A DNA stretch of 64,000 nucleotides from an uncultured Gammaproteobacteria bacterium (lineage in GTDB: Bacteria > Patescibacteriota > Microgenomatia > CAZETR01 > Amesbacteraceae): NCBI GenBank assembly GCA_964633995.1, contig CAZWKN010000003.1, positions 5,750-69,749 of the forward strand, written 5' to 3'. This document shows, piece after piece, positions 27,956 through 62,906 of this stretch. A program made the translations under genes and the position numbers. Below the pieces are notes generated by a model, which saw nothing but the letters and a program-made list of their open reading frames with translations, searched no databases and had not been told where the DNA came from. Positions within the stretch are counted from its first letter, which is position 1. Every line of letters starts with the position of its first letter.

Positions 27956-27998
27956 GATAGTGATTATATATAATGTCGATGTGGGTAGCGACTGGATT

Positions 27999-30044
27999 AT
28001 GGTGTTTCGGTGGTGGCTGGCACTAATGGCTTTTGGATGGGCCGGCTGGCCGATTGCCTCCAAATTATTTCCAGACTGGGATGACCAAGGTTATTTCGCT
28101 GCAAAAATAGTCGGGGTAGCATTGGTCAGTTATTTAATTTGGGTTCTGGGAATTATTAAGTTGGCGCCGTTTACATGGTTAACCGTATTTGGACTCGTTC
28201 TGGGGATGATTATCCTTGGAAATTTTGGAAAAAATAAACATGGGCTAAAAAAGGAAGTGATTGGGCTGTTGGTGGTTCAAGAATTTATCTTTTTGGGATG
28301 TTTGTTTTTTTGGTCCTGGATCAAAGCACATGAACCATCAATAAACGGGCTAGAGAAGTTTATGGACTATGGGTTTACCAGGTCTATTTTACAAATTAAA
28401 TACTTTCCACCAGTGGACATGTGGTTTTCAGGGGAACCGATTAACTACTATTATTTTGGACATTTGATATTGGCCGTTCTTACTCGTTTTTCAGGCTTAA
28501 AATTAGCCGTAACATTTAACATCATGTTGGCCACCATATTTGCATGGTGCACTAGCATGAGTTTTGCCATAGGCAGAAGATTGTTAATAAATTTTAGAGG
28601 ACTGGTTAAATGGATTGGCGCCTTATTTATTGCAGTTTTAGTATCTCTATCGGGCAATTTACAAACAATTTATACTTTCACAAAAGGTTATAACGGAGAA
28701 GAAACACCTCCACCGTTTTGGAAGATATTGGCCCCATGGTCAATTGGTTCGAAGACGTACTGGTACCCCAACGCCACAAGATTTATTCCTTATACTATTC
28801 ATGAATTTCCAAGTTATTCTTTTGTCGTGTCGGATGTTCACGGCCACGTACTTGACATCCCCCTGGCTCTTTTAGCAATTGCGTTGTTAATAACTCTGTT
28901 TGGTAAAAAGCAAAGCCTTTCTGTTTGGCATGCTGTAACATTTGGGGTCTTGTCGGGAATGATGTTTATGACCAACGCGCTTGATGGCCCTGTTTATTTG
29001 GGACTATTCGGACTACTTGCTTTCATAAACAGAAGGTCCGTTTTAAGCATTTTGGCACAAGCGGCCGGTTTGATTGTCGCGTTTGGTATTACAATATTAC
29101 CTTTTGTAAGCACCTTTAAATCTTTTGTCTCCGGAGTGGGTGTTAATTGCCCACCAAGTTTCCTGGCAAACAGCAAATTGGGGCCGTTTCTGTTTGAAGG
29201 AGTAGAAAAATGCCAAAAGTCTCCTCTGTGGATGATGGCTGTGTTGTGGGGTTTTTTTGTGTTTGGGGCGATAATAGTGCAGGCGCTTCCTAAAAACGAA
29301 ACCGAGTTAAGGAGTAGACAGTTAATGCTGATTGTGTCTTTATATTGCTTGGGGTTAATAGTGTTTCCTGAATTTTTTTATTTTAAGGATATATATCCTA
29401 TGCACTTTCGAAGCAATACTATGTTTAAATTTGGATATCAAGTGTTCATAATGATGTCCTTGATTTCAGGATATGCACTAGTTAGTTGGGTTAGAGAAAA
29501 AGTAAGTATAAAAAAATTACTAATTTTGTCACTTAGTTTCCCAATGGTGGTGTTGGTCTTGGTGTATCCTTTTTTCTCTGTCAGATCATACTTTGGCAAC
29601 TTGACGAAGTACGAGGGGCTGTATGGATTGGAATGGATAAAACTCCGTCGTCCGGACGACGCACGAGCGATAGATTGGTTTGAAAGAAACGTTAATTGGG
29701 GAGAACAACCAGTTGTGCTCGAAGCCAATGGGGATAGTTATACCGAATACGAAAGGATTTCCGCTTTTACGGGCCTTCCGACTGTGGCCGGATGGACCGT
29801 ACACGAATGGCTTTGGAGGGGTGGCTACGGCCCAATTTCACAAAGGGCTGAGGAGGTAAGAACGATTTACGAAAGTGGGGATGTGGGAGTTGTTAAATCG
29901 TTGCTAAAAAAATATGGAGTAGTGTACATAATAATTGGCGATTTGGAACGACAAAAATACACCAGAATCACAGAGAGCGTGTTACAAAGCTTGGGCAACA
30001 CCGAGGCTGTTTTTGGAAATACAACTATTTTAAAAGTGATGTAA
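27999..30044 (+). CDS. DUF2298 / YYY-motif (Chlor_Arch_YYY-like) large membrane protein, putative glycosyl/oligosaccharyl transferase
   Basis: Start trimmed to ATG 27999 (MVFRWW...); GEPINYYYFGH motif; >12 TM segments plus large C-terminal soluble domain. Confidence 0.5.
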   Translation: MVFRWWLALMAFGWAGWPIASKLFPDWDDQGYFAAKIVGVALVSYLIWVLGIIKLAPFTWLTVFGLVLGMIILGNFGKNKHGLKKEVIGLLVVQEFIFLGCLFFWSWIKAHEPSINGLEKFMDYGFTRSILQIKYFPPVDMWFSGEPINYYYFGHLILAVLTRFSGLKLAVTFNIMLATIFAWCTSMSFAIGRRLLINFRGLVKWIGALFIAVLVSLSGNLQTIYTFTKGYNGEETPPPFWKILAPWSIGSKTYWYPNATRFIPYTIHEFPSYSFVVSDVHGHVLDIPLALLAIALLITLFGKKQSLSVWHAVTFGVLSGMMFMTNALDGPVYLGLFGLLAFINRRSVLSILAQAAGLIVAFGITILPFVSTFKSFVSGVGVNCPPSFLANSKLGPFLFEGVEKCQKSPLWMMAVLWGFFVFGAIIVQALPKNETELRSRQLMLIVSLYCLGLIVFPEFFYFKDIYPMHFRSNTMFKFGYQVFIMMSLISGYALVSWVREKVSIKKLLILSLSFPMVVLVLVYPFFSVRSYFGNLTKYEGLYGLEWIKLRRPDDARAIDWFERNVNWGEQPVVLEANGDSYTEYERISAFTGLPTVAGWTVHEWLWRGGYGPISQRAEEVRTIYESGDVGVVKSLLKKYGVVYIIIGDLERQKYTRITESVLQSLGNTEAVFGNTTILKVM

Positions 30045-31086
30045 CGAAGTCAAAAACGACACGGGGGTCGTTGTTTTTGGGAAGGAGGACCCAAGAAAAA
30101 TCATAGTCTTGAACGTAGTCTGGTTGGTATAGTTGGTCCGGCTCAGACAATGAATAAGTTGAGATGTTTTGTTTTTTCATTTTGATTGCAATCTTTGACA
30201 AAGAAAGATAGTTCTCTGGCTTTATGTCCGTGATGACGTTTTCCCTAACAAGACCGAGAAGTTGTTTGTATGTTTGAATATTTTGGGAAAATAGTTTGCT
30301 TTTAAAGGCAGCTATTACTTTTTCTTGCCTTTTTGACCTTGCGAAATCGGTACCCTCAGCGGGATCGGTCGAATGCCTTGATCTGGCAAATTTGAGGGCA
30401 GTAATGCCGTCCATGTGGGTAAGACCTTTGGAAAACGTGACCGTCTCATACCGGCAAAGAAACTGAGGGTCGCCACCACAATTGTCGTTTTCTTTTCCGG
30501 GGATGGGATACTGTGTGTCGACAAAAGAATTTTGAATGTTGACATCAATTCCTCCCAACAGATCAATGGCTTGCTTAAAGGTCGAAAAATCGACCACAAT
30601 TGCAAAATCAATGGGTTGATTTATAAATTGGGAGACAACTGATTTTGAAAGAGCCAGCCCCCCTGCTGTCCCGGCTTTTTCCGACCCAAAATGAAAAGCC
30701 GTGTTAATTTTGGCTCTAATCGAAGAAATCCAAACGTCTCTGGGAATCGATAAGAAGACAGCATTGCCATTAGCTGAATCTATCGACATAAAGATAATGG
30801 TGTCGGTTAAATCTGGCCCTTCGTGATCACCGCCACCTATTCCTAATAGTAAAAAGTTTATTCTTCCTGCGTGGAGGGGTACAGAATTTTTGGTGTACTC
30901 CGCTATTTGAGTCAAAAACCCACGAGAAAGGCTGTTGACAAGAAGTACGCTACCACAAACCAGAAGAATTATTGTGCAAACGATGATGGTTCGAGCTAAA
31001 AACACCCGAGACAAAAGTCGTCTTTTGAATCGGTTGTATAAGGAATTCATTCTGGTATGCTGCATATGTGGAACTGTTAAAAACAC
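30025..31086 (-). CDS. LytR-CpsA-Psr (LCP) family cell-wall glycopolymer ligase
   Basis: N-terminal TM; RINFLLLGIGG ... DTIIFMSID ... SIPRD LCP signature. Confidence 0.85.
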   Translation of the reverse strand: MFLTVPHMQHTRMNSLYNRFKRRLLSRVFLARTIIVCTIILLVCGSVLLVNSLSRGFLTQIAEYTKNSVPLHAGRINFLLLGIGGGDHEGPDLTDTIIFMSIDSANGNAVFLSIPRDVWISSIRAKINTAFHFGSEKAGTAGGLALSKSVVSQFINQPIDFAIVVDFSTFKQAIDLLGGIDVNIQNSFVDTQYPIPGKENDNCGGDPQFLCRYETVTFSKGLTHMDGITALKFARSRHSTDPAEGTDFARSKRQEKVIAAFKSKLFSQNIQTYKQLLGLVRENVITDIKPENYLSLSKIAIKMKKQNISTYSLSEPDQLYQPDYVQDYDFSWVLLPKNNDPRVVFDFVTSLLK

Positions 31087-37722: not shown

Positions 37723-38301
37723 ATGAGAACATGTGGGATGGATGAGGTGGGAAGAGGAGCCTTCGCCGGACCATTGACCGCTGCGGCGGTAATATTAAAT
37801 CCTAAATCTAAAATTCTAAGTTCTAAATTAAAAGACTCTAAAAAACTAAGTTCAAAACAAAGAAACCGACTTTATAAAAAAATTATTAAATACGCGGACT
37901 TGATAGAAATTGAAATAATCTCTGTGAGACTAATAAATAATAGAGGGATTGGGTGGGCAAATAAACAGATTTTTCGCAATTTAATTAAACGAATTGAGGC
38001 GGACAAATTTATTATTGATGGTAATTTGAAAATAAGAAAAGCGGTAAGCGTCGTTAAGGCGGACACTAAAATTCCGGAGGTGATGGCTGCGTCGATAATT
38101 GCTAAGGTGACGCGGGATGAGTACATGATAAAACTGCACGAGGAACACGAGGTGTATGGTTGGAAATCTAATAAGGGATATGGGACGAAATATCATATTA
38201 ATGCGCTACGGGAACATGGAATGACAAGGCATCATAGGAGTGTGTTTGTAACAACGGCACTGAAAAATAGTTACGAAGTCAAGGTTCTAGATAATTGGTG
38301 A
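37723..38301 (+). CDS. rnhB: Ribonuclease HII
   Basis: GMDEVGRGAFAGPLTAAAV catalytic N-terminus; 192 aa; contains a Lys/Ser-rich low-complexity insert. Confidence 0.9.
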   Translation: MRTCGMDEVGRGAFAGPLTAAAVILNPKSKILSSKLKDSKKLSSKQRNRLYKKIIKYADLIEIEIISVRLINNRGIGWANKQIFRNLIKRIEADKFIIDGNLKIRKAVSVVKADTKIPEVMAASIIAKVTRDEYMIKLHEEHEVYGWKSNKGYGTKYHINALREHGMTRHHRSVFVTTALKNSYEVKVLDNW

Positions 38302-39328
38302 GCTTCATTGATGGATCAAAATCAGGATAAAAATTGCGCTCCCAAACATGGTTTTTAAGCTCTGTCATGAGCTTTTGGGAAAGTTTATAACCGTCTGAAA
38401 TTGCTGCGTTCGCGATGACATTGCCCACCTTACGCGTTCCAGGAATAACTGAGGAAATTTCATCAAAGGACAAAATGTAACGAAGAGCTAATTCTGGTAT
38501 GGATTGAGCCTCGGTCCCTAATAATTTTGTTAAGGTGTTGATTCTGGGGATAAATTCTTTTAAATGCTCCTGGTTAAAATACAACGATCTCATTTGGTCA
38601 TCAAAATGTGTATCTGGCGTTAATTTTCCAGTTAGTCCCCCTTCGTCCAAAGGAACACGGGCTATTAAACCAATGTTGTTTTTGGCGGCGTATGGCAACA
38701 ACTTTTCAGTGGGTTTTTGATGAAAGATGTTAAAAATAAACTGAACTGAGGCGATTAAACCAGTGTCTAAAGTTTTTAGGGCATTGCTGGGTTGATAATC
38801 GTTAATCGAAATTCCCCAATGTTTGACTTTGCCGGTCCGGCTAATATTTTGAATGGTGTTTTTCCAACCGTCTTCTTTTACAAAATCGTCCTGCCAGACG
38901 TGGAATTGCATCAGATCTATTGAGTCTAGACCAAGGCTTGTTAAAGAAGCGTCTACCATTTCTTTGATATATTTATCAGGGAATACTTCGGAAACAGGAA
39001 TACCTTGCCTCGCTGGCCAATAACGATTTTTGGGCGGAATTTTGGTAGCTACAATGACTTTATTTTTATTTCCAGACTCTTTGAGAAATTTCCCGATTAG
39101 TTCTTCCGATGTGTGGCTACCCACCTCCTCACCCGGCTCATCGGCGCGACCATAGACGTAAGCAGTATCAATAAAGTTTCCCCCAAGTTCGACAAATTTA
39201 TATAAGCTTCGCAAGCTTTCCTGTTCGTCTGGCGCGTCCCAACCCCAAGGCTTACCTGCTAATTGCCATGTCCCCATGCCGACTTCAGAAATGTTCAAGC
39301 CTGTTTTGCCAAGAGTACGATATTGCAT
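38279..39328 (-). CDS. Aldo/keto reductase family oxidoreductase
   Basis: Trimmed to Met 39328 (MQYRTLGKTGLNISEVGMGTWQL...); AKR motifs; ORF-track upstream extension to 39718 is non-protein-like and overlaps a better plus-strand ORF. Confidence 0.85.
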   Translation of the reverse strand: MQYRTLGKTGLNISEVGMGTWQLAGKPWGWDAPDEQESLRSLYKFVELGGNFIDTAYVYGRADEPGEEVGSHTSEELIGKFLKESGNKNKVIVATKIPPKNRYWPARQGIPVSEVFPDKYIKEMVDASLTSLGLDSIDLMQFHVWQDDFVKEDGWKNTIQNISRTGKVKHWGISINDYQPSNALKTLDTGLIASVQFIFNIFHQKPTEKLLPYAAKNNIGLIARVPLDEGGLTGKLTPDTHFDDQMRSLYFNQEHLKEFIPRINTLTKLLGTEAQSIPELALRYILSFDEISSVIPGTRKVGNVIANAAISDGYKLSQKLMTELKNHVWERNFYPDFDPSMKLTNYLEP

Positions 39329-39356
39329 TTTTCGATTATAACTCTTTGATATACTG

Positions 39357-39947
39357 TTGGAAGTGTTAAATCCTAACTTTGCCATATTGGGAGCGGCTGT
39401 CCAATTTTTTGGAGGTTGGGGATATTTTATTGATACCCTAAAGGGGAAAGTAAAACCAAATAAGGTTAGCTGGTTATTGTGGTCTATTGCACCGTTAATA
39501 GCTGCCTTTGCACAAATAAAGCAAGGCGTGGGAATTTTGTTTATAACCACGTTTGTAGTTGGTTTTTTGCCTGTGATAATTTTTATCGCCTCTTTTGTGA
39601 ATAAAGACGCCAAGTGGAAAATTACAAAATTTGATTTAACCTGTGGACTGTTGTCTCTGATCGGTTTGGTATTATGGTTGATTACCAAGGTGGGGAATGT
39701 GGCTATTTTCTTTAGCATCGTCGCAGACGGCCTAGCGTCAGTGCCGACAATATTAAAATCCTATTCTGACCCAGAATCAGAAAATGATTCGGTGTATTGG
39801 TTTGGGACGGTTAATGCAGCTCTTGGTTTATTAACTATTTCTACTTGGAAATTTGAATTTTGGGGTTTTCCGCTTTACTTGTTGTTTTGCAGTTTGGGTA
39901 TTGCGATATTGATTAGGTTTAAGATTGGAAAACGATTTTCCCGTTGA
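39357..39947 (+). CDS. Polytopic membrane protein with two PQ-loop/MtN3-like repeats (SWEET-like, tentative)
   Basis: 196 aa, about 6-7 TM; two internally similar segments (IDTLKGKVKPNKVSWLLW / VPTILKSYSDPESENDSVYWF) resembling PQ-loop motifs. Confidence 0.35.
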   Translation: MEVLNPNFAILGAAVQFFGGWGYFIDTLKGKVKPNKVSWLLWSIAPLIAAFAQIKQGVGILFITTFVVGFLPVIIFIASFVNKDAKWKITKFDLTCGLLSLIGLVLWLITKVGNVAIFFSIVADGLASVPTILKSYSDPESENDSVYWFGTVNAALGLLTISTWKFEFWGFPLYLLFCSLGIAILIRFKIGKRFSR

Positions 39948-44020: not shown

Positions 44021-45493
44021 ATGAGCGACAAGTTTTATATCACTACGGCAATCCCTTATGTAAACGGGAAACCGCATATTGGACATGCACTAGAGTATTT
44101 TCAGGCCGACGTTTTGAGAAGATATCACCAAATGCTTGGCGAGGAAACGCTGTTGCTGTCCGGGGCAGATGAAAATGCCTTGAAAAATGTCCAGGCGGCA
44201 GAAAAAGAAGGAGTTCCCGTTAAGGATTTTTTAGACAGAAATTCTAAAGTCTTTAGGGACTCCTATGAATTTCTGGGGGTGCATTTGGATGTGTTTCAAA
44301 GAGGGTCTGATCAGGAAAAACACTGGCCGGGGGTGCAAAAATTGTGGAACCTATGTATGGCAAGCGGGGATATATATAAAAAAACATATGAGGGACTTTA
44401 TTGTGTAGGGTGTGAAAGCTTTAAGACGGAAAAAGAACTAATAAACGGCGAATGCCCAGATCACAATAAAAAACCAGAAGTAGTAAAAGAAGAGAATTAT
44501 TTTTTTAAACTGTCAAAGTATCAGAACAAATTACTTGAGCTGATAGAGACGGGGGCCTTTAAAATTGCCCCTGAAAATAAAAGAGCGGAGATAGTATCGT
44601 TTATTAGATCCGGGCTTGAAGACTTCAGTGTGTCTAGATCAAAAGAAAGGGCCAGGGGGGTTGGAGTACCTGTTCCTGACGATGAAAATCAGGTGATTTA
44701 TGTTTGGTTTGATGCTTTGGATATTTATATGACCGGGGTGGGATTTGGGTGGGATGAAGAAACATGGAAAAAATGGTGGCCCGCCGATATGCACGTAATT
44801 GGCAAGGATATTAATAGATTCCATACCGTGTATTGGCCGGCTATGTTGCTGTCTGCCGGAATAGACTTGCCCAAACAGGTGCTGGTGCATAGTTTTGTAA
44901 CCTCTAAGGGGCAAAAAATGAGCAAGTCCATAGGAAATGTTATTGATCCATACGAAATGGTGAATAAGTATGGACTGGAGGCGGTGAGATATTACATGTT
45001 ATCTAGAATCCCATTAACTGACGATGGTGATTTTACAGAGGAAAAATTTGTGGAAGTGTATAACGCCGATTTGGCAAATGGATTGGGGAATTTGACCTCA
45101 CGGGTAGCAAAACTTTGCGAGAATGCACAAATAACAATGGATGTCGTTTCAAGAACAACTGCTGGAGTAATAAATAAATTCGTACTTTGGATTCCTGATC
45201 CTGGTCTGGAGAATGAATACCTTAAAGGTCTAGAAAGCTATAGATTTAACGAGACATTGGGACTAATTTGGCAAAAAATTTCTGAACTAGACAGGAAAAT
45301 TGAAGAGATTAAACCCTGGGAACAAAAAATCGATGATGATGCAAAATTTTTGAAAGATATTGCTGTGTTGTGGATCAGAGATATTGCCAGATTGTTGGGG
45401 CCGTTTTTGCCGGAAACTGCGGAGAAGATTTTGAAGCAATTTGCTGGACCGAAAATTAAGTCAGCCCCTCCTTTGTTTCCGAGAATAAAGTAA
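44021..45493 (+). CDS. metG: Methionyl-tRNA synthetase (short form)
   Basis: HIGH motif (KPHIGHA), zinc knuckle CVGCESF...CPDH, KMSKS motif. Confidence 0.95.
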   Translation: MSDKFYITTAIPYVNGKPHIGHALEYFQADVLRRYHQMLGEETLLLSGADENALKNVQAAEKEGVPVKDFLDRNSKVFRDSYEFLGVHLDVFQRGSDQEKHWPGVQKLWNLCMASGDIYKKTYEGLYCVGCESFKTEKELINGECPDHNKKPEVVKEENYFFKLSKYQNKLLELIETGAFKIAPENKRAEIVSFIRSGLEDFSVSRSKERARGVGVPVPDDENQVIYVWFDALDIYMTGVGFGWDEETWKKWWPADMHVIGKDINRFHTVYWPAMLLSAGIDLPKQVLVHSFVTSKGQKMSKSIGNVIDPYEMVNKYGLEAVRYYMLSRIPLTDDGDFTEEKFVEVYNADLANGLGNLTSRVAKLCENAQITMDVVSRTTAGVINKFVLWIPDPGLENEYLKGLESYRFNETLGLIWQKISELDRKIEEIKPWEQKIDDDAKFLKDIAVLWIRDIARLLGPFLPETAEKILKQFAGPKIKSAPPLFPRIK

Positions 45494-45503
45494 AATACTA
45501 AAA

Positions 45504-46247
45504 GTGATTGATGCACATTGTCATTTGTATGAGTTGCCGGAGGAGGAATGGGTAAATAATGGGTTGGAGGCGATGATTTGCGCTGGATCTGATTTGGAAA
45601 GTAGTAGGAGGGCTATAGAATTGGCAGAGAACTATCCAAACGTCTACGCAACTGTTGGAATGCATCCGGAAGCAATAAGTGAGTTTCACAGTTTGACAGT
45701 TGCTCAGTTGCGCAGTGAAGTTAAAAAATTAATTAGTCGTAAGAAAGTTGTGGCGGTGGGAGAATGCGGACTGGATACTGGGAGTGAGGAAGAGGTTGAA
45801 CTGTTTAAGTTTAATATTAATTTGGCAAAAGAAACTGGATTGCCACTAGTAGTGCATTGCAGAAACATGTTCGGGAAGGTGTTTGAGATTTTGGATTATG
45901 ACCGGGTGCAAATGCATTGTTTTACGGGAAATGAGGAAGAGATGCGAGAGTGTGTGGGGAGGGGGTGGTATATTAGTTTTGGGGGAATATTAACGTTTAA
46001 AAAAAGCGGGGAACTGAGAAGAATAGCCAGTTTGGTGCCTGAGAACAAGTTGCTGGTTGAGACCGATAGCCCATATTTGGCTCCCGAACCGGTCAGAGGA
46101 AGCAGAAATTTCCCAAAAAATGTAAAATACGTTGTGGATTGCCTGGCTGAAGCCAGGGGTATGGAACCTGAGCGAATTGAGGCAGTAACCAACGAGAACG
46201 CTAAAAAACTATTTAATTTAGGATATGACCAAAAAACGAATTATTGA
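45504..46247 (+). CDS. tatD: TatD-family metal-dependent DNase/hydrolase
   Basis: MIDAHCHL start, GMHPE, VVAVGECGLD motifs; conserved metG-tatD adjacency. Confidence 0.9.
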   Translation: MIDAHCHLYELPEEEWVNNGLEAMICAGSDLESSRRAIELAENYPNVYATVGMHPEAISEFHSLTVAQLRSEVKKLISRKKVVAVGECGLDTGSEEEVELFKFNINLAKETGLPLVVHCRNMFGKVFEILDYDRVQMHCFTGNEEEMRECVGRGWYISFGGILTFKKSGELRRIASLVPENKLLVETDSPYLAPEPVRGSRNFPKNVKYVVDCLAEARGMEPERIEAVTNENAKKLFNLGYDQKTNY

Positions 46248-47688
46248 AATCGCCATCGGGTTTACGAGCTGGAACTTAATATTATTTTTGGTGTGGGGAG
46301 GATACTTTTTTCCAACCCTGACTGCATATTTCATATTGGCGTTTGTAGTCTTTTGGTTATATAGAGGATTCAATTGGACTATGGCTTCTTTGCTTGCTCA
46401 TTTTCAGGTTAAGGCCGCGGAGAGATTGGATTGGATGAAGGAGGTTGAGGGTTTTGGAGACTGGAAAGAAATAAAACACATCATTTTGATTTTGATTGCC
46501 AATGAGCCAAAAGAAACCTATGAGCGCACACTTGAGGCATTGGCTAAACAAACATTTCTTTTGAAAAACATTGTTCCCGTCCTGGCAACAGAGGAAAGGT
46601 ATCCCGATGGAGAAAAAAACTGTAAGGAATTGAGGGCAAAGTGGAAAGATGTTTTTGGGGAAATACTGATCACTGTTCATCCAAAGGACATAGTAGGAGA
46701 GATCAAAGGAAAGTCATCTAATGAAAACTGGGCTGCACGTGAAGCCAAAAGAATCCTGGTGGACGAAAAGGGATGGAATATTAAAAATATCACCATCACA
46801 TCTAATGACGCCGACTCGATTTTGCATCGTCAATATTTGGCTTGCCTGACATACAAATTTCTTGACAACCCACATCGATATGAAAGATTTTGGCAACCAG
46901 CAGTGGTTTTTTATAACAACATATGGCGATTGCCAGCGGCGACGCGCGTGGTTAATGTTATCGGGAGCGTGTTGCAAATCGGATTGTTGGCGAGAAGAGA
47001 TCGGCTAGTAAACTTTTCAAACTACACCTCTTCTCTTTCAATGATTGACCAGATTGGATACTGGGACACGGACGTGATCCCGGAGGATTATAGGATTTTT
47101 TTTAAAGCTTTCTTTAAACTACAAGGGCGAGTTGAGGTAGAACCGGTGTTTCTGGCTTCTTCTGCTGATGCCGCGGAGTCTACCACCACTTGGAAGACCT
47201 TGGTAAATGATTATCAACAAAAAAAACGTTGGGCTTGGGGGGTTTCAGACATTCCTTTGTTTATTGAATTATTTATGAAGGATCCCTCCAGGTCTTTTGT
47301 AAATAAATTTTTAAGAGTAGCGAGAGTAACTGAGGACCATGTGCTTTGGCCAGTAAATTGGTTTATTATCACGACGGGGGTAACCATATCTACTTTTGTG
47401 AACCCCAACTTTCAACGGACAAGCATTGGCTTTTTGCTTCCTAAAATAACTTCCACATTATTGTCTGTTTCTTTGATTTTTTTGGTTGTCTTGTTATGGA
47501 TTGATTTTTCCCAGAGACCCCCAAAGCCCGCAGAAGTACCAAAATGGAAAGTCTGGCTGGCGCCGTTTGAGTTTGTGCTTCTGCCTATAGTTGGATTTTT
47601 CTTTATGGCCTTGCCCGGATTAGATGCTCACACCAGACTGATGCTTGGAAAATATATGGAATACAGAATTACAGAAAAGGTAAAATAG
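46225..47688 (+). CDS. Family 2 glycosyltransferase, membrane-embedded processive type (cellulose/chitin-synthase-like)
   Basis: N-terminal TM pair; TSNDADS (DxD), QQKKRWAWG (QxxRW processivity motif); C-terminal TM bundle. Confidence 0.75.
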   Translation: MTKKRIIEIAIGFTSWNLILFLVWGGYFFPTLTAYFILAFVVFWLYRGFNWTMASLLAHFQVKAAERLDWMKEVEGFGDWKEIKHIILILIANEPKETYERTLEALAKQTFLLKNIVPVLATEERYPDGEKNCKELRAKWKDVFGEILITVHPKDIVGEIKGKSSNENWAAREAKRILVDEKGWNIKNITITSNDADSILHRQYLACLTYKFLDNPHRYERFWQPAVVFYNNIWRLPAATRVVNVIGSVLQIGLLARRDRLVNFSNYTSSLSMIDQIGYWDTDVIPEDYRIFFKAFFKLQGRVEVEPVFLASSADAAESTTTWKTLVNDYQQKKRWAWGVSDIPLFIELFMKDPSRSFVNKFLRVARVTEDHVLWPVNWFIITTGVTISTFVNPNFQRTSIGFLLPKITSTLLSVSLIFLVVLLWIDFSQRPPKPAEVPKWKVWLAPFEFVLLPIVGFFFMALPGLDAHTRLMLGKYMEYRITEKVK

Positions 47689-47703
47689 GTTTACAATTGT
47701 TGT

Positions 47704-49152
47704 ATGTGGGTAAGGTTTGAAAAATGGGTTCATCGTTGGGAGGGGTTGCTAATAATTTTGGCTCTAGTTTCGTTTTTGAGAATACCGTCTCTTTTTGAAC
47801 CATACTGGTACGGAGATGAAGGAATATATTTGACTTTGGGACAGGCAGTCAATCGCGGAGAGGTGCTGTATAAACAGATTCACGACAACAAGCCTCCCAT
47901 GATTTACTGGACAGCAGCGCTGGCTTTGGGAAATTTGTTTTGGTTTAAATTTTTGGCTTGGTGGACCGGGATGGTGGGGACGATAGTAATGTACCTGATG
48001 TGCGAAAAGGTGCTGGGAGAAAAGTCTAAGGGGGTTTTTTGGACAACGACTTTGTTTGCTCTGTTAACCACAATTCCGCTACTAGAAGGTAACATCGCTA
48101 ATGCCGAGTTGTTTTTTATACCATTTACCGTGGGAGCGACTTATCTGGTGTGGGATAAGGAAGCTGGGTGGATAAGGGTGTTTTTGGCGGGAATCCTTTT
48201 TGGATTGGGAGGACTGTTTAAGATTCCAGCATTGTTTGAGGCGGGAGTTTGGCCGATAGTGTGGATAGTAGAAAAGGACAAGTTGTGGTTTAAAAAATGT
48301 CTTGTATTATCGCTGGGAGCGTTGCTGCCAATAGTGGGAAGCGGTGTTTATTTCGCAGGTTTGGGGGCATTGAAAGAATACCTTGTTGCTGCCTGGGCAC
48401 AAAACATTCCATATTTGTCTTCCTGGAGGTCCGGAGGGGGTGAGTCAGGGATATTTTCTCTTAAAGGAAGATTGGTTGTTTTGTTTATTTGGTTGGGGGC
48501 AATAACCGGTCTTGGGAAACGGTGGGGAAGGACGGGATTGATAGTGGGGGTTTGGGGTGGAATAAGTTTGTTTGCGGCGCTTTTGTCAGGACGACCATAC
48601 CCACACTATTTGATACAGGTCGGTGGAATCATAGCACTGTGCGTCGGGATAATAGTTTGGGGGGAGAAAAGGTGGACATGGCCATCCGCAGGAATCATCT
48701 CCATGGTGTTAGCGTCGGTTATGGTGTTTAAATTTTGGATGTATCCTGTGGGAGGGTATTATTTAAATTTCAGCAGGTGGGCGTTCCGCACTATTGACAC
48801 AAGTGAATACAGAAAGTGGTTTAACCCCAAAATTGAAGTTGATTATGAAATCGCTGAAATAATAATGGCAGGAAGCAAACCAGAAGACCGGTTGTTTGTA
48901 TGGGGAGACGCACCGATCTTATACGCCTTGACCAAGGTGCCCCCAGTAGGAAAATATACGGCCAGATATCACATCTCGGACTTTTCTGCACAAGCCGAAA
49001 CTTTGCAGGTCCTAACTGACACTCCACCCAAATACATTGTTGACTATGGTGAGGCAGATAAATTGCCTGGGCTTGAGTCGTTGTTAAGATCAAAATATAT
49101 AGTGATCAAAAAATTTGGCGATACGGCTGTCTACAGGCTAATTAAGGTATAA
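47704..49152 (+). CDS. GT-C fold membrane glycosyltransferase (ArnT/PMT/arabinosyltransferase-like)
   Basis: YWYGDEGIY DE motif in first loop, about 11 TM then C-terminal soluble domain. Confidence 0.6.
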   Translation: MWVRFEKWVHRWEGLLIILALVSFLRIPSLFEPYWYGDEGIYLTLGQAVNRGEVLYKQIHDNKPPMIYWTAALALGNLFWFKFLAWWTGMVGTIVMYLMCEKVLGEKSKGVFWTTTLFALLTTIPLLEGNIANAELFFIPFTVGATYLVWDKEAGWIRVFLAGILFGLGGLFKIPALFEAGVWPIVWIVEKDKLWFKKCLVLSLGALLPIVGSGVYFAGLGALKEYLVAAWAQNIPYLSSWRSGGGESGIFSLKGRLVVLFIWLGAITGLGKRWGRTGLIVGVWGGISLFAALLSGRPYPHYLIQVGGIIALCVGIIVWGEKRWTWPSAGIISMVLASVMVFKFWMYPVGGYYLNFSRWAFRTIDTSEYRKWFNPKIEVDYEIAEIIMAGSKPEDRLFVWGDAPILYALTKVPPVGKYTARYHISDFSAQAETLQVLTDTPPKYIVDYGEADKLPGLESLLRSKYIVIKKFGDTAVYRLIKV

Positions 49153-49160
49153 TTATTGGT

Positions 49161-49496
49161 GTGAATACTACCTGGGAACGACTAAAGCTCTGGAATATTA
49201 TTATGTGCGCCGGTGTTGGGACTGTGGCTTTTGGCATATGGATGGCTTTTGGGACCAGAATGCCTCCACAGGTGCCTGTTTTTTTTAGTAGACCATGGGG
49301 CGAAACTCAACTTGCTAGTCCATCAACGCTTTTGATTATTCCAGGCATGTCGGTGGTGCTGGGCATTACCACCTCGATTGTATTGTTTAAAGCTAAGACC
49401 GAATCGGTGTTACTGGGAATAATTGCTGCAACTAGCATTGTGGGGCAGATAATATTGGGCACCGCCTTGTTGCGTATTGTTAGCATGATAATTTAA
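49161..49496 (+). CDS. Small 3-4 TM membrane protein (possible GtrA/SMR-like lipid-linked sugar flippase; hypothetical)
   Basis: 111 aa, hydrophobic; embedded between GT-C and WecA-like genes with 4-9 nt gaps. Confidence 0.35.
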   Translation: MNTTWERLKLWNIIMCAGVGTVAFGIWMAFGTRMPPQVPVFFSRPWGETQLASPSTLLIIPGMSVVLGITTSIVLFKAKTESVLLGIIAATSIVGQIILGTALLRIVSMII

Positions 49497-49500
49497 CAAA

Positions 49501-50592
49501 ATGCAGAATTGGACAGGTTGGATGTTTTTGTTGCCAGGAATTGTGGGGGCTATTGTGTCGTACCTTACGACCGGATGGGTAGTAAAAAAGGGGGAAAGTT
49601 GGGGAATTATTGATGATCCTAACAAACACCGCATGCCCAAGGTTGTACACGATAAACCGGTTCCACGAGGGGGTGGAATTCCTATATTTGTAGCTGGTAT
49701 TGTGGGAATAATATTATTCTTGCCAAAAAATTTACATAGTTTAGGGCTAATCGGAGCAATGTTTGTTTTGGCAGTAACGGGGGTACTAGATGATAGGTTT
49801 GAGGAAATGATTTCACCTTATGTTCGGTTGGTTATAAATATCGGAGCGGCACTATTAGTGATAGGGGCTGGAATTGGAATTGCTTATATTACAAACCCAT
49901 TTGGGGGAATTATTAATCTGGATCAACCAAGGTGGTGTTTGGGAAATCATTGTATATGGGTGCTGGCGGACCTATTCGCCTTAATTTGGTTGGTAGGGCT
50001 GCAAAATATAATTGGATGGAGCAGTGGGGTTGACGGACAATTGCCCGGGTTTGTAATAATCGCCGCCGTCACCATTGGGGTATTGGCTATGCAAACCGGA
50101 ACGGATTTGAATCAGTGGCCGGTAATTGGCCTGGCGGGAATCACAGCAGGAGCGTATTTGGGATTTTTGCCTTGGAATTGGTGGCCACAAAAAATTATGC
50201 CTGGATATGGGGGTAAAAGCTTGGCGGGGTTGCTTTTGGGGGTATTGGCTATCATGTCAACGGCAAAGGTAGGAACTCTGGTTTTGGTATTGGGAGTTCC
50301 AATTATCGACGCAGCTTTGGTTATTATTAAGAGAATAAGTGAGGGTAGATCTCCGGTTTTTGGCGGAAGAGAACATCTACACCATTATTTGCTCGACAGG
50401 GGATGGGGCAAGAGGAGAATAGCCCTTTTTTATTGGGCCGTGTCTGGAATTTTGGCGGTTGTAGCCTGGCAATTGCATCCACCTATTAAGTTATATACAA
50501 TGGCGACAGTTGTTTTAGTTTTACTAGGAGGAATATTGTGGTTAAGAAATTGGTCGGATTACTCAAAACGGCAAGGCCCAGGCAGTGGGTAA
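49501..50592 (+). CDS. Polyprenyl-phosphate N-acetylhexosamine-1-phosphate transferase (MraY/WecA family)
   Basis: 10-11 TM; TGVLDDRFE (DD motif), NIIGWSSGVDGQLPG (cf. NxxNxxDGxDGL), HHYLLDRG. Confidence 0.72.
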   Translation: MQNWTGWMFLLPGIVGAIVSYLTTGWVVKKGESWGIIDDPNKHRMPKVVHDKPVPRGGGIPIFVAGIVGIILFLPKNLHSLGLIGAMFVLAVTGVLDDRFEEMISPYVRLVINIGAALLVIGAGIGIAYITNPFGGIINLDQPRWCLGNHCIWVLADLFALIWLVGLQNIIGWSSGVDGQLPGFVIIAAVTIGVLAMQTGTDLNQWPVIGLAGITAGAYLGFLPWNWWPQKIMPGYGGKSLAGLLLGVLAIMSTAKVGTLVLVLGVPIIDAALVIIKRISEGRSPVFGGREHLHHYLLDRGWGKRRIALFYWAVSGILAVVAWQLHPPIKLYTMATVVLVLLGGILWLRNWSDYSKRQGPGSG

Positions 50593-51488
50593 AAAACTTA
50601 ACTTTGTATGCGGCGTTGCTATTTACAGGTAATCTATACACATCTGAAATTTGGGTTAGGGATTTTTGGGTAGTAACCAGGGGAATTGCGGCATTTACAA
50701 TGGTGGCGTCGGCAATTTATTTTTTGAACGACTTGGTGGATACCAAAGCCGACCTTGCACATCCATTTAAAAAGAAAAGGCCCATTGCCTCGGGGCAAAT
50801 TTCCTCCTTAGTGGCAAAAATTGCAATTGTGTTATTGCTAACGGTTGGCTTATGGTGGGCGAAGACACTAAGCCCTCTATTTGGATTAGCAGTGTTGGGG
50901 TATGTAACGATGCAGGTTCTATATAGTTTTTGGTTGAAAAATATTGAGGTCGTGGATGTATTTATCATTGCCTTGGGCTTTTTTCTAAGGGTGGTGGCAG
51001 GAGCTTTAATTATTAATGCCCATTTATCTATCTGGTTTTTACTGTGTGTAGTTTCGACATCCCTGTTTCTTGCAGTGGGCAAACGAAGGGCTGAGCTGTC
51101 AATATTGTCAGAACAAATTGACGCAATAAAACATCGTAAGGTTATGGGGAAATATAGTGTGGGAATATTGGATTCATACTTAACAATGTTTGCCACGGCC
51201 GCATTTTTGTCCTGGGCATTGTTTACGTTTAATTTTTACGACCAGGCTGGACCAATAAACACACCCACTAGTCTTGTGCTTATATCCAGGACGCTAACCA
51301 TAAACAAGTGGCTGATGGCAACAATTCCGGTAGTGATATTTGGGATTATGAGATACATACGGATTATCTATGATGGGTCGAGGGCAGAAAGCCCGGAAAG
51401 AGTGATTTTAAGCGACTTACCTCTTTTGTTGAGTGTGGGGGTATGGGGAATTATTGTAATAGTGGTCCTGTACGCTGGTCAAGGATAA
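50538..51488 (+). CDS. UbiA-family prenyl-phosphate phosphoribosyltransferase (decaprenyl-phosphate 5-phosphoribosyltransferase/DPPR-like)
   Basis: N-terminus ARPRQWVKNL, NDLVDTKAD (NDxxDxxxD), second Asp-rich region, 8-9 TM; overlaps upstream gene by 55 nt. Confidence 0.7.
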   Translation: MVKKLVGLLKTARPRQWVKNLTLYAALLFTGNLYTSEIWVRDFWVVTRGIAAFTMVASAIYFLNDLVDTKADLAHPFKKKRPIASGQISSLVAKIAIVLLLTVGLWWAKTLSPLFGLAVLGYVTMQVLYSFWLKNIEVVDVFIIALGFFLRVVAGALIINAHLSIWFLLCVVSTSLFLAVGKRRAELSILSEQIDAIKHRKVMGKYSVGILDSYLTMFATAAFLSWALFTFNFYDQAGPINTPTSLVLISRTLTINKWLMATIPVVIFGIMRYIRIIYDGSRAESPERVILSDLPLLLSVGVWGIIVIVVLYAGQG

Positions 51489-52342
51489 AGAGTGGCATAG
51501 GTTTTTGATATCCACCCCGAAGAAGTAGCTTCTAACTCAGCTTGAATTAAATACCAATCGTCTTGCTGGGATAGGAAAGGATATAGTTCTTTCGGTTTGA
51601 GGCTTCCAATTTTGTCACCAGACGGTGACGGTTTGGATCTAACATTTAGAAAGCCTGTTGGAGTGTCTTTGATAATCACATACGGCCTGACTGGTGTTGG
51701 ACTGGGGGCGGTGGTCGTATTGGCAAGCACTGGAGTTGGCTCTACTGGACCCCCAGATAGTTTAACCAGGAGGTTTAATTTGTATCCATCTATCGCTTTT
51801 ATGTTGATAGTCCGACTAGCAAAGCCGGGGGCTGTAAAAGTAACTTGATGATCACCCGCAGGTACGGTGGCCAAAAGTGGGGTAAATCCCTGGGGTTGAC
51901 CGTCTAAGACGACTGAGGCAAGCTCTGATCCGGCTGAAACGGCGGTGATACTGGCAGCCTTGCCGGGCTGAGGCTGGAGACTAACAATGTCGCCAGAAGA
52001 TTCGGCTTCGGAGCCCGCAAAATCTCTTCTGACGATGGTAAACGTCTGGTCGGTTAACCTAACTTTGGTTTGATAGGCTGTTAAGGCAGATGAGGATGAG
52101 TTTGGAATTAGTTTTAATAAAATTTCTCCTGGGGGAAAAATTTTGTCTATGGGAGTTGAACCAATTTGAATATTATCTACAAACACCAAGGATTCGGGGT
52201 TGGTTTCAATTTTTAATCCGGCCGTCGACTTGCGTGATTTTACAACCCCAATAAGTACAAATCCTACTACAACTCCAAATCCTGCAAAAATCATAGTAAG
52301 GGCAAACAATTTTTTGTTGGGCACGAGCAGAAGTATACACAA
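51479..52342 (-). CDS. Membrane-anchored PEGA-domain protein with C-terminal SH3b domain
   Basis: TM (likely start MIFAGFG at 52294); two PEGA-like repeats (IGSTP...PPGEILLKL; GFTPL..VPAGDHQVTF); C-terminal YVIIKDTPTGFLNVRSKPS...WYLIQ SH3b-like. Confidence 0.6.
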   Translation of the reverse strand: MCILLLVPNKKLFALTMIFAGFGVVVGFVLIGVVKSRKSTAGLKIETNPESLVFVDNIQIGSTPIDKIFPPGEILLKLIPNSSSSALTAYQTKVRLTDQTFTIVRRDFAGSEAESSGDIVSLQPQPGKAASITAVSAGSELASVVLDGQPQGFTPLLATVPAGDHQVTFTAPGFASRTINIKAIDGYKLNLLVKLSGGPVEPTPVLANTTTAPSPTPVRPYVIIKDTPTGFLNVRSKPSPSGDKIGSLKPKELYPFLSQQDDWYLIQAELEATSSGWISKTYATLYP

Positions 52343-52364: not shown

Positions 52365-52437
52365 GATCCGGTGGTGAAGTAGCTAACACAGCGGTCTGCA
52401 AAACCGCCATTCATGGGTGCAAGTCCCATCCGGATCT
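52365..52437 (+). tRNA. tRNA-Cys (anticodon GCA)
   Basis: Manual fold: acceptor GATCCGG/CCGGATC (7 bp), U8, 3-bp D stem GTG/CAC, anticodon stem GCGGT/ACCGC with loop CTGCAAA, 5-bp T stem ATGGG/CCCAT with 7-nt loop, discriminator U73 (Cys identity element); CCA not encoded (followed by CA TTTTT). Confidence 0.65.
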
Positions 52438-52488
52438 CATTTTTACAGATTCGCATTTTCTTCGGTTTGAGTTGACTTTTGGGGATTT

Positions 52489-60763: not shown

Positions 60764-61786
60764 ATGAAGATTGTCAAGGAAAAGGGCGCCAACATGGCAG
60801 AAATTATACAAACGCTTACCGACGGTGGCATCGTTGTGTTGCCAACTGAAACAGCTTACTTAACCGCCATTGACGCCACAAACCCCAAAGCAGTACAGAA
60901 ATTGTGTGAGTATAAAAAACGGCCTTTGGGTAAACCTTTTTCGGTTGCAGTCTCCGATATGGCCATGGCCGAAGAATATGTAGAGCTAAACAAACAAGCA
61001 ATAAAACTGTATAACACTTTTTTGCCTGGACCAGTAACTGTTGTGTCAAAAGGGAAACACAAGACGGCACCCGGGATAGAGTCGGAGCTAGGTACTTTGG
61101 GAATAAGAATCCCTGATTATCAATTGGTTATTGACGTTGTTAAACAATTCGGAAAACCTGTGACGGCAACATCGGCTAATAAGAGCTATGAAAAGCGACC
61201 TTATAAAATCGCCGATCTGGATATTGAAAAGTTTGATTTAATAATCGATGCCGGAGAGCTCCCGCACAACGAACCGTCCACGGTTATTGACACCACAATG
61301 GACGATTTGGTGGTGCTAAGACAGGGGGAAGTAGTTATCAGTAATCAGTTGTCAGTTGTCAGTTATAACGAAGAAATGACTAAAAATACTGGGAAGGAAC
61401 TGTGGCAGAAGTACGAGAAGTTTGCAGGACACAGGGCTATTGTATTTGCTTTGGAGGGCGAAATGGGAGCCGGAAAAACTGTTTTTACAAAAGGATTGGC
61501 AAGGGCTATGGGAATAGACGAAGTGATAACTTCGCCTACTTTTAATATTGAGCTTGTATACAAAAACTTACATCATATTGATGCGTGGAGAATGCAAAAC
61601 GGAGACGAGCTGGAACAATTGGGGCTGGCTGGAACAATACACGACAAATCAGTCCTGGTTATCGAATGGGCAGATAGGGTGGCGGATACGATAAGAAAAT
61701 ATAACGACGAAGCAGTAATTATTTGGGTAAAAATACTCTATGGAAAAGCTGATAACGAGAGGTTAATTAGCTGGGGAACATTGTAA
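60764..61786 (+). CDS. tsaC-tsaE: Fusion protein: L-threonylcarbamoyladenylate synthase TsaC (YrdC domain) + t6A ATPase TsaE (YjeE domain)
   Basis: N-terminal half: VLPTETAY...RPLGKPFSVAV...LPGPVTVV (YrdC/Sua5); C-terminal half: GEMGAGKTVFTKGLARAMG...ITSPTFNIE...HIDAWRM...VIEWADRV (TsaE signature). Confidence 0.8.
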   Translation: MKIVKEKGANMAEIIQTLTDGGIVVLPTETAYLTAIDATNPKAVQKLCEYKKRPLGKPFSVAVSDMAMAEEYVELNKQAIKLYNTFLPGPVTVVSKGKHKTAPGIESELGTLGIRIPDYQLVIDVVKQFGKPVTATSANKSYEKRPYKIADLDIEKFDLIIDAGELPHNEPSTVIDTTMDDLVVLRQGEVVISNQLSVVSYNEEMTKNTGKELWQKYEKFAGHRAIVFALEGEMGAGKTVFTKGLARAMGIDEVITSPTFNIELVYKNLHHIDAWRMQNGDELEQLGLAGTIHDKSVLVIEWADRVADTIRKYNDEAVIIWVKILYGKADNERLISWGTL

Positions 61787-61823: not shown

Positions 61824-62906
61824 ATGCAAAAAAATAGCAATCTTAAGATCTTGGCCATTGATACCTCGTGTGACGAGACGGCGGCGGCGGTAACCGAGGG
61901 TACAAAAATTTTGTCTAATGTAATTTGGTCACAGGCCAGTTTGCATGCCAAATATGGAGGCGTTCTCCCCTCTTTGGCTCAAAGAATGCACGAAGAAAGG
62001 ATTGATTGGGTTGTAAACAAAGCACTTCGACAAGCTCAGTGTAAACTAAACAAAATTGAATCAGTTGCGGTTACTTGTGGTCCGGGATTGGCGATTGCTT
62101 TGGGAGTAGGAATTAAAAAAGCAAAAGATGTGGCCCGAGAAATTGGTGTTCCAATCATTGGAGTGAATCATACAGAGGGGCACGTTTTATCGCCACTGGC
62201 GGAAGCAATAACCAAAAACCAAAATCCAAGAAACAAAATTTGTTTTCCGGCGTTGGGGTTGGTGGTAAGTGGGGCGAACACACAGCTAGTTCTAATTAGA
62301 AAAATCGGCGATTATCAGGTGTTGGCTGAGAAGGTAGACGATGCGCTGGGGGAGGCGTTGGACAAAGCAGCCCGCATGTTGGATCTTGGGTATCCGGGCG
62401 GAGCGGTATTGGAAAAATTGGCAAAATCTGGAAACCCAAAAGCTTATTCTCTACCATTGCCAATGGCAGGAAAGGAAGACAGAAATGAATTTAGTTATTC
62501 TGGCCTTAAGACTGCTTTTTGGAGACTAACTAATAACAAAACTTTTAGCAAGCAACAGATTTGCGATTTGGCGGCGAGTTTTCAAAACCGGGCGTTCGAA
62601 CACTTAACAAGAGTGTCGGAAAAGAGTATTAGAGCGGGAGAGTGTAAGAGTATAAGAACTTTGCTAGTTGGGGGTGGGGTGGGGGCAAATGTGGAATTGA
62701 GGAAGAGATTGAGAAAAGTGGCGAAGGATTTGGGCATGGAAACCAGATTCCCCTACTCTGCCAAGCTGTATGGAGACAATGCAGCCATGATTGGGGTCGT
62801 GGCGGGTTTTAAAGCAGCGAGAGGAGAGTTTTCAGATCCGGAAAAAATTGATAGGTTGCCAAGATGGAGTGTGGATGAAAAAATGGCACAAGAAGCTGTA
62901 AAATGA
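61824..62906 (+). CDS. tsaD: tRNA N6-adenosine threonylcarbamoyltransferase TsaD (Kae1/YgjD)
   Basis: ILAIDTSCDETAAAV...VNHTEGHVLSP metal-binding HxxH motif; 360 aa. Confidence 0.93.
   Translation: MQKNSNLKILAIDTSCDETAAAVTEGTKILSNVIWSQASLHAKYGGVLPSLAQRMHEERIDWVVNKALRQAQCKLNKIESVAVTCGPGLAIALGVGIKKAKDVAREIGVPIIGVNHTEGHVLSPLAEAITKNQNPRNKICFPALGLVVSGANTQLVLIRKIGDYQVLAEKVDDALGEALDKAARMLDLGYPGGAVLEKLAKSGNPKAYSLPLPMAGKEDRNEFSYSGLKTAFWRLTNNKTFSKQQICDLAASFQNRAFEHLTRVSEKSIRAGECKSIRTLLVGGGVGANVELRKRLRKVAKDLGMETRFPYSAKLYGDNAAMIGVVAGFKAARGEFSDPEKIDRLPRWSVDEKMAQEAVK

Follow-up and report, generated by a model that had tools for sequence, protein, structure and literature searches.

A conserved glycosyltransferase cluster of Microgenomates with an accessory gene for a predicted polyprenyl-phosphate phosphoribosyltransferase

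We analyzed a 64,000-nucleotide stretch of DNA (positions 5,750 to 69,749 of contig CAZWKN010000003.1, assembly GCA_964633995.1), referred to below as the window, which carries a cluster of five plus-strand genes at 46225–51488 that we named A to E. A first-pass annotation made from the raw sequence had described five co-directional, tightly packed open reading frames (ORFs) at this place and had interpreted them as an arabinogalactan-type pathway in a genome resembling those of the Candidate Phyla Radiation (CPR). The five ORFs are present as described, and all five protein classes had been recognized correctly: a membrane glycosyltransferase of family GT2, a GT-C glycosyltransferase, a small transmembrane (TM) protein, a member of the MraY/WecA (PNPT) superfamily and an enzyme of the UbiA superfamily resembling decaprenyl-phosphate phosphoribosyltransferase (DPPR). 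Very probably the cluster serves to make a sugar polymer of the cell surface that is linked to a lipid, but it does not reproduce the arabinogalactan pathway of mycobacteria. We favor its reading as a Microgenomates module that assembles a lipid-linked glycan at the outer side of the cytoplasmic membrane, with an accessory branch, present here as in most lineages, that supplies a pentofuranose donor, i.e. as a CPR variant of three-component glycosylation built on an A-B-C-D core. The enzyme classes and the linkage were observed; the relations between donor and acceptor, the identity of the sugar and the role of C have to be deduced from them. We give this reading about an even chance.

The pentofuranose branch is represented by E (50538–51488, 316 aa), which by its sequence is a genuine polyprenyl-phosphate 5-phosphoribosyltransferase of the DPPR/PPPRS type, its activity being predicted from this class. 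E matched the UbiA family PF01040 with an E-value of 3.5e-20. Against the NCBIfam models for DPPR it reached 199 bits with NF008977 (E 1e-58), 189.5 bits with NF008978 (E 7e-56) and 146 bits with a third model, the first two models having curated equivalog cut-offs, 234 and 207 bits, respectively, that these scores do not reach. The generic UbiA model NF006088 likewise gave 146 bits, and the specific models for enzymes other than DPPR (heme O synthase, UbiA, MenA-like, chlorophyll synthase, EboC, GGGP-type) gave 44 bits at most. The top match in the PDB was Rv3806c from Mycobacterium tuberculosis (8j8j, E 2.1e-34). By profile scores and by best structure E groups with DPPR and not with the quinone or heme prenyltransferases, as the first-pass annotation had supposed.

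According to the cryo-electron microscopy structure of Rv3806c, phosphoribosyl pyrophosphate (PRPP), Mg2+ and the 5-phosphate are held by R22, K28, Y70, N73, D77, K87, R90, Q135, Y138, K143, Y157 and K208; Phe takes the place of Y157 in certain mycobacteria, and conservation of the phosphoribose site does not extend to ordinary UbiA enzymes (PMC10994848). Pairwise alignment placed R13, K19, Y61, N64, D68, K78, R81, Q126, Y129, K134 and F148 of E opposite the first eleven of these residues, and D81 of Rv3806c was also aligned to an identical or equivalent residue. The counterpart of K208 is a Lys near position 201 of E, as placed by a single pairwise alignment. We then counted conservation at twelve positions of the PRPP site across 44 CPR homologs. 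Ten of them (R13, K19, Y61, N64, D68, D72, K78, R81, Y129, K134) are invariant in all 44 sequences, Q126 is a Gln in 37, and at F148 either Phe or Tyr is found. The DPPR profile scores, Rv3806c as best match and the conserved PRPP contacts together identify E as a PPPRS.

The 3’ end of D and the 5’ end of E overlap by 55 nt, and an overlap of approximately this length was found in most loci containing E. This region encodes the residues R13 and K19 of E. Because two residues of the catalytic site thus lie inside the overlap, the long start of E is the real one and its translation is coupled to that of D; conservation of the overlap points to co-translation of both genes. Only two of 120 listed E homologs are annotated as DPPR, the others being mostly designated “UbiA prenyltransferase” or “4-hydroxybenzoate polyprenyltransferase”. 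The latter label, which JGI assigns to many CPR homologs, is probably a misannotation given the presence of the PRPP-binding residues, and the assignment of E therefore corrects the public annotation of these proteins.

When the alignment of B was used for a pattern search, 521 genomic loci were obtained. The best 80 of them all belong to Microgenomates-type CPR bacteria (Amesbacteria, Woesebacteria, Shapirobacteria, Blackburnbacteria, Collierbacteria and Cerribacteria). Using tblastn and ORF mapping we found the order A-B-C-D wherever the contig allowed it to be followed, with a convergent gene for a PEGA and SH3 domain protein downstream, in about 77 genomes at 35–70% identity. B-C-D is uninterrupted in every locus with an adequate flank. 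The cluster is thus syntenic in related genomes. Neither of the two outcomes by which the first-pass annotation would have judged its proposal refuted was observed.

E was scored as present or absent in 77 loci; a further 7 loci were not scored. It is located directly after D in 60 loci and is absent from 17, in which D abuts the PEGA gene. Complete or nearly complete genomes with E include OZ246419.1 (an 811-kb chromosome) and CAZFGX010000001.1 (1.0 Mb); JAQWEN010000001.1 (735 kb) and JBAQNJ010000001.1 (998 kb) bear the cluster without it. The 17 loci without E form one clade on the tree of D and essentially one on the tree of A. Their flanks contain two class A penicillin-binding proteins, an aldolase and PfkB upstream and CapA, GAPDH and PGK downstream, and no MetRS, TatD, M23 or GroEL gene was found nearby. 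Since A-B-C-D-PEGA is intact in this unrelated context, the unit survives relocation and its linkage is not mere collinearity. Judging from this distribution, E is an accessory gene that appears to have been gained or lost once, and the pentose branch is not part of the core.

The PEGA-SH3 gene lies directly downstream in convergent orientation in 54 of the 60 loci with E and in 16 of the 17 without. In the window it is located on the minus strand at 51479–52342 (PF08308, E 1.7e-12; PF08239, E 2.3e-8) and overlaps tail to tail with the end of E by 10 nt. It encodes an extracytoplasmic protein, which has a TM anchor here and a lipobox-like N-terminus in other clades.

In about 18 loci the junction between A and B contains an insert of 1.3–5.7 kb. 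The inserts encode a second GT-C family that is PMT_2/EpsG-like (15 loci), a tandem B paralog (L017 and L019), a PTPS_related membrane protein (3 loci), an ABC exporter of the PglK/MsbA type (4 loci) and a GalE-like short-chain dehydrogenase/reductase (SDR; L054 and L069). To judge from these sequences, the junction is a hotspot for the insertion of glycan genes. Such content is expected of a locus for extracytoplasmic glycan elaboration and counts in favor of our reading. The GalE-like SDRs could be either pentofuranose epimerases or ordinary UDP-sugar epimerases; the pentose epimerase ORF13 of Citrobacter youngae is a GalE-like SDR (PMC11127046). None is encoded in this window.

Searches for homologs returned 3787 matches for A, 3059 for B and 4195 for E; for C, 399 representative clusters came out of an exhaustive search. 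These large numbers argue that A, B, C and E are real genes and not chance ORFs. The closest relatives of every protein of the cluster come from Amesbacteria and other Microgenomates metagenome-assembled genomes (MAGs), so the description of the genome as CPR-like was correct. The motifs QQKKRWAWG, IPEDY and DAD of A, VLDD and GVDGQ of D as well as RPRQWVKN and NDLVDTKAD of E are conserved over 44–76 homologs. Many records of MAGs in which the cluster occurs bear the title “uncultured Gammaproteobacteria”, “Pseudomonadales”, “Nevskiaceae”, “Clostridia” or “Alphaproteobacteria”. In view of their gene content and of 35–50% identity to proteins of Amesbacteria and Woesebacteria, these titles are probably mislabels.

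B (47704–49152, plus strand, 482 aa) is a glycosyltransferase of the GT-C fold with a C-terminal extracytoplasmic alpha/beta domain. Its sequence had no match in Pfam, NCBIfam or the PDB and did not match PMT_2 (PF13231) at E ≤ 0.01; among 31 homologs 14 matched PMT_2, with a best E-value of 3e-8. An AlphaFold model of B from 31 homologs is confident (pLDDT 92.7, pTM 0.90). The first extracytoplasmic loop carries the motif EPYWYGDE, in which D38 and E39 are invariant, as are K63, P64 and P65. The GT-C class with a DE loop motif that had been read from the raw sequence is hence borne out. The nearest structures are PIG-M and ArnT, and all of the nearest structures use monosaccharide donors linked to a polyprenyl monophosphate. 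The Emb/Aft enzymes, for which the first-pass annotation had suggested a comparison of folds, are no closer than at the fold level. B is, on the basis of this model, a GT-C of the ArnT/PMT type that combines a multi-TM fold with an acidic first-loop motif. Two other membrane proteins of the window, a PMT_2 GT-C at 24756–26402 and a 558-aa protein at 26387–28063, were considered as paralogs of B and rejected, as no paralogy was detectable.

A (46225–47688, plus strand, 487 aa) is a membrane GT2 of the cellulose/hyaluronan-synthase type with two N-terminal TM helices, a GT-A domain and a C-terminal TM bundle. It matched PF13632 (Glyco_trans_2_3) with an E-value of 3.6e-8 and, weakly, the PgaC model. 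In the PDB, searches by sequence and by profile gave nothing meaningful for A, B or C; weak matches of A to RuBisCO were discarded as short chance matches. The predicted model of A is of moderate quality (pLDDT 67), with values of 75–92 in the GT-A core and low values in the TM parts. Its best and longest structural alignments were obtained with hyaluronan, cellulose and chitin synthases, that with hyaluronan synthase extending over 359 residues including TM parts, whereas GlfT2 aligned over 238 residues of the GT-A core only. GtrB, DPMS and ArnC scored between 12.5 and 13.3. In fold and in the TM-GT-TM topology A resembles the processive GT2 synthases (hyaluronan synthase, BcsA/CesA, chitin synthase, PgaC) and PcManGT, a minimal enzyme resembling cellulose synthase; DxD, ED and Q(Q/R)xRW are motifs that it also has in common with them. 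D195xD197, E287-D288 (within IPEDY), Q332-x-x-R335 and A337-W338-G339 show a conservation of 95% or more across 74 homologs, so that the QxxRW motif claimed for the GT2 is a true one; W336 is invariant in 25 Amesbacteria-type homologs and falls below 80% in the wider set. A thus combines the fold of a synthase with the complete D, DxD, ED, QxxRW signature in a membrane GT2. Of the five proteins it shows the highest conservation, with 61–71% identity among Amesbacteria-type homologs. The NCBI/Logan gene call for A comprises 435 aa (89% coverage). Homologs measure 485–490 aa and have conserved N-terminal TM helices, which supports the 487-aa form.

D (49501–50592, plus strand, 363 aa) is a divergent enzyme of the MraY/WecA superfamily (PF00953, E 3e-18). 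It scored 69 bits with the WecA model, 57 bits with the archaeal MraY-like model and 51 bits with the MraY model, where the cut-offs are 326, 450 and 192 bits. A profile made from 30 D sequences aligned with MraY structures over the full length (5jnq, E 1.2e-22) and with human GPT over a part only (E 2e-6). In all 76 homologs D97, D98, H292, H294 and H295 are invariant, and so is N169. The first Asp of the motif NxxNxxDGxDGL is the essential D174 of BsMraY, and the catalytic Asp of the Mg2+ site is D265 in AaMraY, D267 in EcMraY and D231 in BsMraY (PMC5039524). At the position of BsMraY D174 the D homologs have Ser, Thr, Lys or Ala; at that of AaMraY D265, 61 of the 76 sequences have Tyr and the other 15 have Phe, an acidic residue never being found. 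The D subfamily thus lacks two canonical catalytic Asp residues, yet retains the DD and HxHH motifs. Of the WecA/MraY-like assignment made for D the superfamily stands; with its altered active site and scores far below the cut-offs, “WecA-like GlcNAc-1-P transferase” is a reasonable guess at the superfamily level only.

In nearly every locus B and D are separated by an ORF of 105–135 aa. In the window this is C (49161–49496, plus strand, 111 aa), a conserved small membrane protein with three TM helices. The three helices are common to 73 homologs, together with a strongly conserved loop after the first helix, LPPQVPLFYSRPWGEEQL. GtrA, SMR/EamA and DUF2304 were not matched by any of 31 family members at E ≤ 1, so the earlier likening of C to the mycobacterial Rv3789 flippase is not supported; as a flippase C is a candidate by position only. 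A faint signal for DUF1648 appeared in 5 of the 31 members (best E 0.01), and C had no match in the PDB. All 150 proteins listed from the 399 representative clusters are standalone proteins of 75–150 aa. An apparent C-D fusion ORF in locus L037 proved to be an artefact, the C-like match lying in another reading frame. Gene callers begin C at Met15, which gives 97 aa; the homologs favor about 111 aa.

The three-component pentofuranose systems are a closer precedent for this set of enzymes than arabinogalactan synthesis. In these systems, which occur in diverse bacteria and are described as widespread, PRPP is used by a PPPRS to form, once the phosphate has been removed, undecaprenyl-phosphate-linked ribofuranose (Und-P-Ribf). 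This donor is exported by a flippase, and on the outer side of the membrane an ArnT-like GT-C attaches its sugar to the finished glycan; where epimerases are present, which is optional, ribofuranose (Ribf) is converted to xylofuranose (Xylf) or arabinofuranose (Araf) (PMC11127046). Examples are ORF15-ORF14-ORF12 of C. youngae O1/O2 (Kelly et al. PNAS 2024, PMC11127046) and the PPPRS and GT-C that arabinosylate pilin in Pseudomonas aeruginosa (PMC11127046). The Microgenomates cluster shares with them the genetic linkage of a UbiA-superfamily PPPRS (E) to an ArnT-like GT-C (B), which we observed in 60 of 77 loci, the ArnT-like fold of B, as reported for ORF12 (PMC11127046), a predicted glycosylation step on the extracytoplasmic side and Ribf as the presumed default donor when no epimerase is linked. 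It differs from them in several respects: E has no fused HAD domain or other extra domain; in place of a MATE or SMR/GtrA flippase the cluster contains the lineage-specific C; the operon to which E and B belong also contains a GT2 of the synthase type and a divergent PNPT, in a monoderm-like CPR host; and E is dispensable in one Microgenomates clade. Our literature search on DPPR/arabinofuranose or PPPRS plus GT-C systems in CPR/Patescibacteria found nothing relevant.

On this precedent, E would transfer ribose-5-phosphate from PRPP to polyprenyl phosphate at the cytoplasmic face of the membrane, and a phosphatase of other origin would strip the 5-phosphate to yield polyprenyl-P-ribofuranose. 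As no epimerase is linked, ribofuranose is taken as the default sugar; Araf or Xylf would require an unlinked epimerase. The donor would be flipped by another protein, for which C is the positional candidate, and B would move the single sugar from the polyprenyl-monophosphate donor to an extracytoplasmic acceptor. That the donor of B is the product of E we infer from their linkage in one operon and by analogy with the three-component systems in the literature; in lineages without E, B would use another polyprenyl-P-sugar. The acceptor glycan would come from D and A, D probably priming polyprenyl phosphate with a sugar-1-phosphate and A extending, and possibly exporting, a beta-linked chain. 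The PEGA-SH3 surface protein may, speculatively, bind or carry the product.

Several observations weigh against this scheme. The 17 A-B-C-D loci without E mean that B is not strictly dependent on the product of E and may use another donor. Neither the cluster nor the 64-kb window encodes a phosphoribose phosphatase, a recognizable flippase or an epimerase: among the ORFs scanned across the window there was no PAP2 protein of the Rv3807c type, no HAD phosphatase and no GtrA or MATE protein. The phosphatase could be encoded elsewhere in the genome. The absence of two catalytic Asp residues from the sequence of D makes its priming activity uncertain. The TM region of A was modeled with low confidence, and processivity and export by A may be regarded as putative. 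Finally, other GT-Cs of the window, at 24756–26402 and the DUF2298 protein at 27849–30044, could be the users of the product of E.

A more specific version holds that most Microgenomates make a glycopolymer, so far undescribed and anchored in the wall or the membrane, whose chain is extended by pentofuranose or decorated with it; the sugar would be ribofuranose, or arabino- or xylofuranose given an unlinked epimerase. The route would be a hybrid without a counterpart elsewhere, in which the Asp-replaced PNPT primes the carrier, the synthase-fold GT2 polymerizes and perhaps exports the backbone on this lipid primer, the ArnT-like GT-C adds pentofuranose from the polyprenyl-P donor of the DPPR-type enzyme and C acts as a new flippase or assembly subunit. 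In this full form we consider the proposal rather improbable.

Among the alternatives we weighed a Gtr/Arn-like hexose system, in which A would be a polyprenyl-P sugar synthase of the GtrB/ArnC/DPMS kind, C would assist or flip, B would transfer the sugar and E would feed another GT-C or provide a second donor. The persistence of A-B-C-D without E fits this idea, and a GT2, a small TM protein and a PMT_2-type GT-C together make up the Arn/Gtr architecture (PMC11127046). However, A matches PF13632 and not PF00535, the family of the GtrB/DPMS type, and it has the QxxRW and ED motifs, the N-terminal TM helices and the best structural alignments of a synthase. C, with three TM helices and no similarity to GtrA or SMR proteins, is unlike ArnE/F or GtrA, and the PNPT and the PPPRS are additional to such systems. 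We therefore regard this explanation as unlikely.

Protein O-glycosylation of the PMT kind, or resembling that by Pseudomonas TfpW, would have B modify the PEGA-SH3 protein or type IV pilins, with pentofuranose where E is present. B is of the PMT_2 type, the adjacent PEGA-SH3 gene encodes an extracytoplasmic protein which here has a linker rich in Ser, Thr and Pro, the pilin arabinosylation of P. aeruginosa offers a parallel (PMC11127046) and genes for PilN and PilO are located in the window. This linker is, however, found in only 23 of 69 homologs, for which reason we rejected the idea that it is a general target of O-glycosylation. There is no pilin gene next to the cluster, and the PNPT and the synthase-type GT2 would be left without a role. 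Protein O-glycosylation is thus a distinctly unlikely purpose of the cluster.

The arabinogalactan-type pathway of the first-pass annotation would comprise WecA-like priming of decaprenyl- or undecaprenyl-P with GlcNAc-1-P, a galactan-like backbone made by the GT2, DPPR with epimerases for polyprenyl-P-arabinofuranose, an Rv3789-like flippase, a GT-C for the arabinan and attachment to peptidoglycan by an LCP ligase. The enzyme classes were identified correctly: E is a homolog of Rv3806c with all substrate-binding residues, PNPT, GT2, GT-C and LCP classes are all encoded in the window, and tandem GT-Cs occur in some relatives, as with Aft and Emb. The search for the partners that this pathway requires was negative. 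Within the 64-kb window there is no DprE1-type FAD oxidase (FAD_binding_4/ALO), no DprE2-type SDR (adh_short), no Rv3807c-like phosphatase and no Glf or GlfT, and in four related genomes (L003–L006) the genes called in the 10 kb on either side of the cluster likewise included no DprE1/E2, phosphatase, Glf, GlfT, GtrA or MATE protein. Moreover, A is of the TM synthase type and not GlfT-like, B is nearer to ArnT and PIG-M than to Emb and Aft, with which it shares only the fold, C is not GtrA-like and E is dispensable in one clade. The LCP ligase that had been included is present at 30025–31086, but it lies 15 kb off beside different glycan genes. Taken as a whole, an arabinogalactan-type pathway is very improbable.

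Mere collinearity of compact CPR genomes without a shared pathway, which could be invoked because the MetRS, TatD, M23 and GroEL neighborhood is also collinear in Amesbacteria-like genomes and the genes upstream are just as densely packed, can hardly be the explanation, since A-B-C-D-PEGA was kept after relocation, B-C-D is never interrupted given an adequate flank, all products are membrane glycan enzymes and the A|B inserts are again glycan genes.

The cluster is tightly spaced, with 15, 8 and 4 nt between A and B, B and C, and C and D, respectively. Upstream are located the genes for MetRS (44021–45493) and TatD (45504–46247), which are 10 nt apart, TatD overlapping with A by 23 nt. As these housekeeping genes are equally tightly packed, the spacing alone says little, and it is the conserved gene order that constitutes the meaningful signal. 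TatD was also considered as a member of the cluster and possible phosphatase and was rejected, since it is missing upstream of A in many loci that bear the module. Scans for promoter and terminator consensus sequences between 43.5 and 53.5 kb gave counts no different from those in shuffled sequence, so that operon boundaries cannot be set in this way. There are no RNA genes within the cluster; a tRNA-Cys is located at 52365–52438.

The 64-kb window is compact, with a GC content of about 43%. A second group of glycan genes comprises a GT4-family glycosyltransferase of the GT-B fold (23016–24146), an FkbM methyltransferase (24134–24778), the PMT_2 GT-C (24756–26402, minus strand), the 558-aa protein, which has no Pfam match (26387–28063, minus strand), the DUF2298 protein (27849–30044, plus strand) and the LCP ligase (30025–31086, minus strand; PF03816, E 4.4e-28). 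MurJ (17761–19419) is unlinked to the cluster, as are two further genes with a possible role in the envelope or in glycan processing, namely a GH39-like glycoside hydrolase (14654–15991) and a surface protein with purple-acid-phosphatase N-terminal/fn3 and Ig-like domains (21041–22447). The window also encodes a block of ribosomal proteins with SecY, DnaK/GrpE/HrcA, PilN/O, FemAB and GroEL/ES. A fusion of Sua5/TsaC with TsaE (PF01300 and PF02367) at 60764–61786 is followed by TsaD (61824–62906). An aldo/keto reductase on the minus strand (38279–39718) has an additional N-terminus of about 145 aa, with the Pfam match starting at residue 145, while its relatives measure 347 aa.

Systems that combine a PPPRS with a GT-C are already known; their pairing with a synthase-type GT2, an altered PNPT and a new family of small membrane proteins is not a described system. 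The composition of the CPR/Patescibacteria envelope is essentially unknown, as nearly all of these bacteria are uncultured, and the cluster provides a concrete, testable prediction. It also draws attention to two uncharacterized families that are always found beside a synthase-type GT2 and a GT-C, namely that of the small protein C and the PNPT subfamily whose active site is altered. If our reading is true, a large class of the CPR would make a polyprenyl-phospho-pentofuranose donor from PRPP which is used by an ArnT-like GT-C on a surface glycan, and the concept of three-component pentofuranose glycosylation would extend to the CPR.

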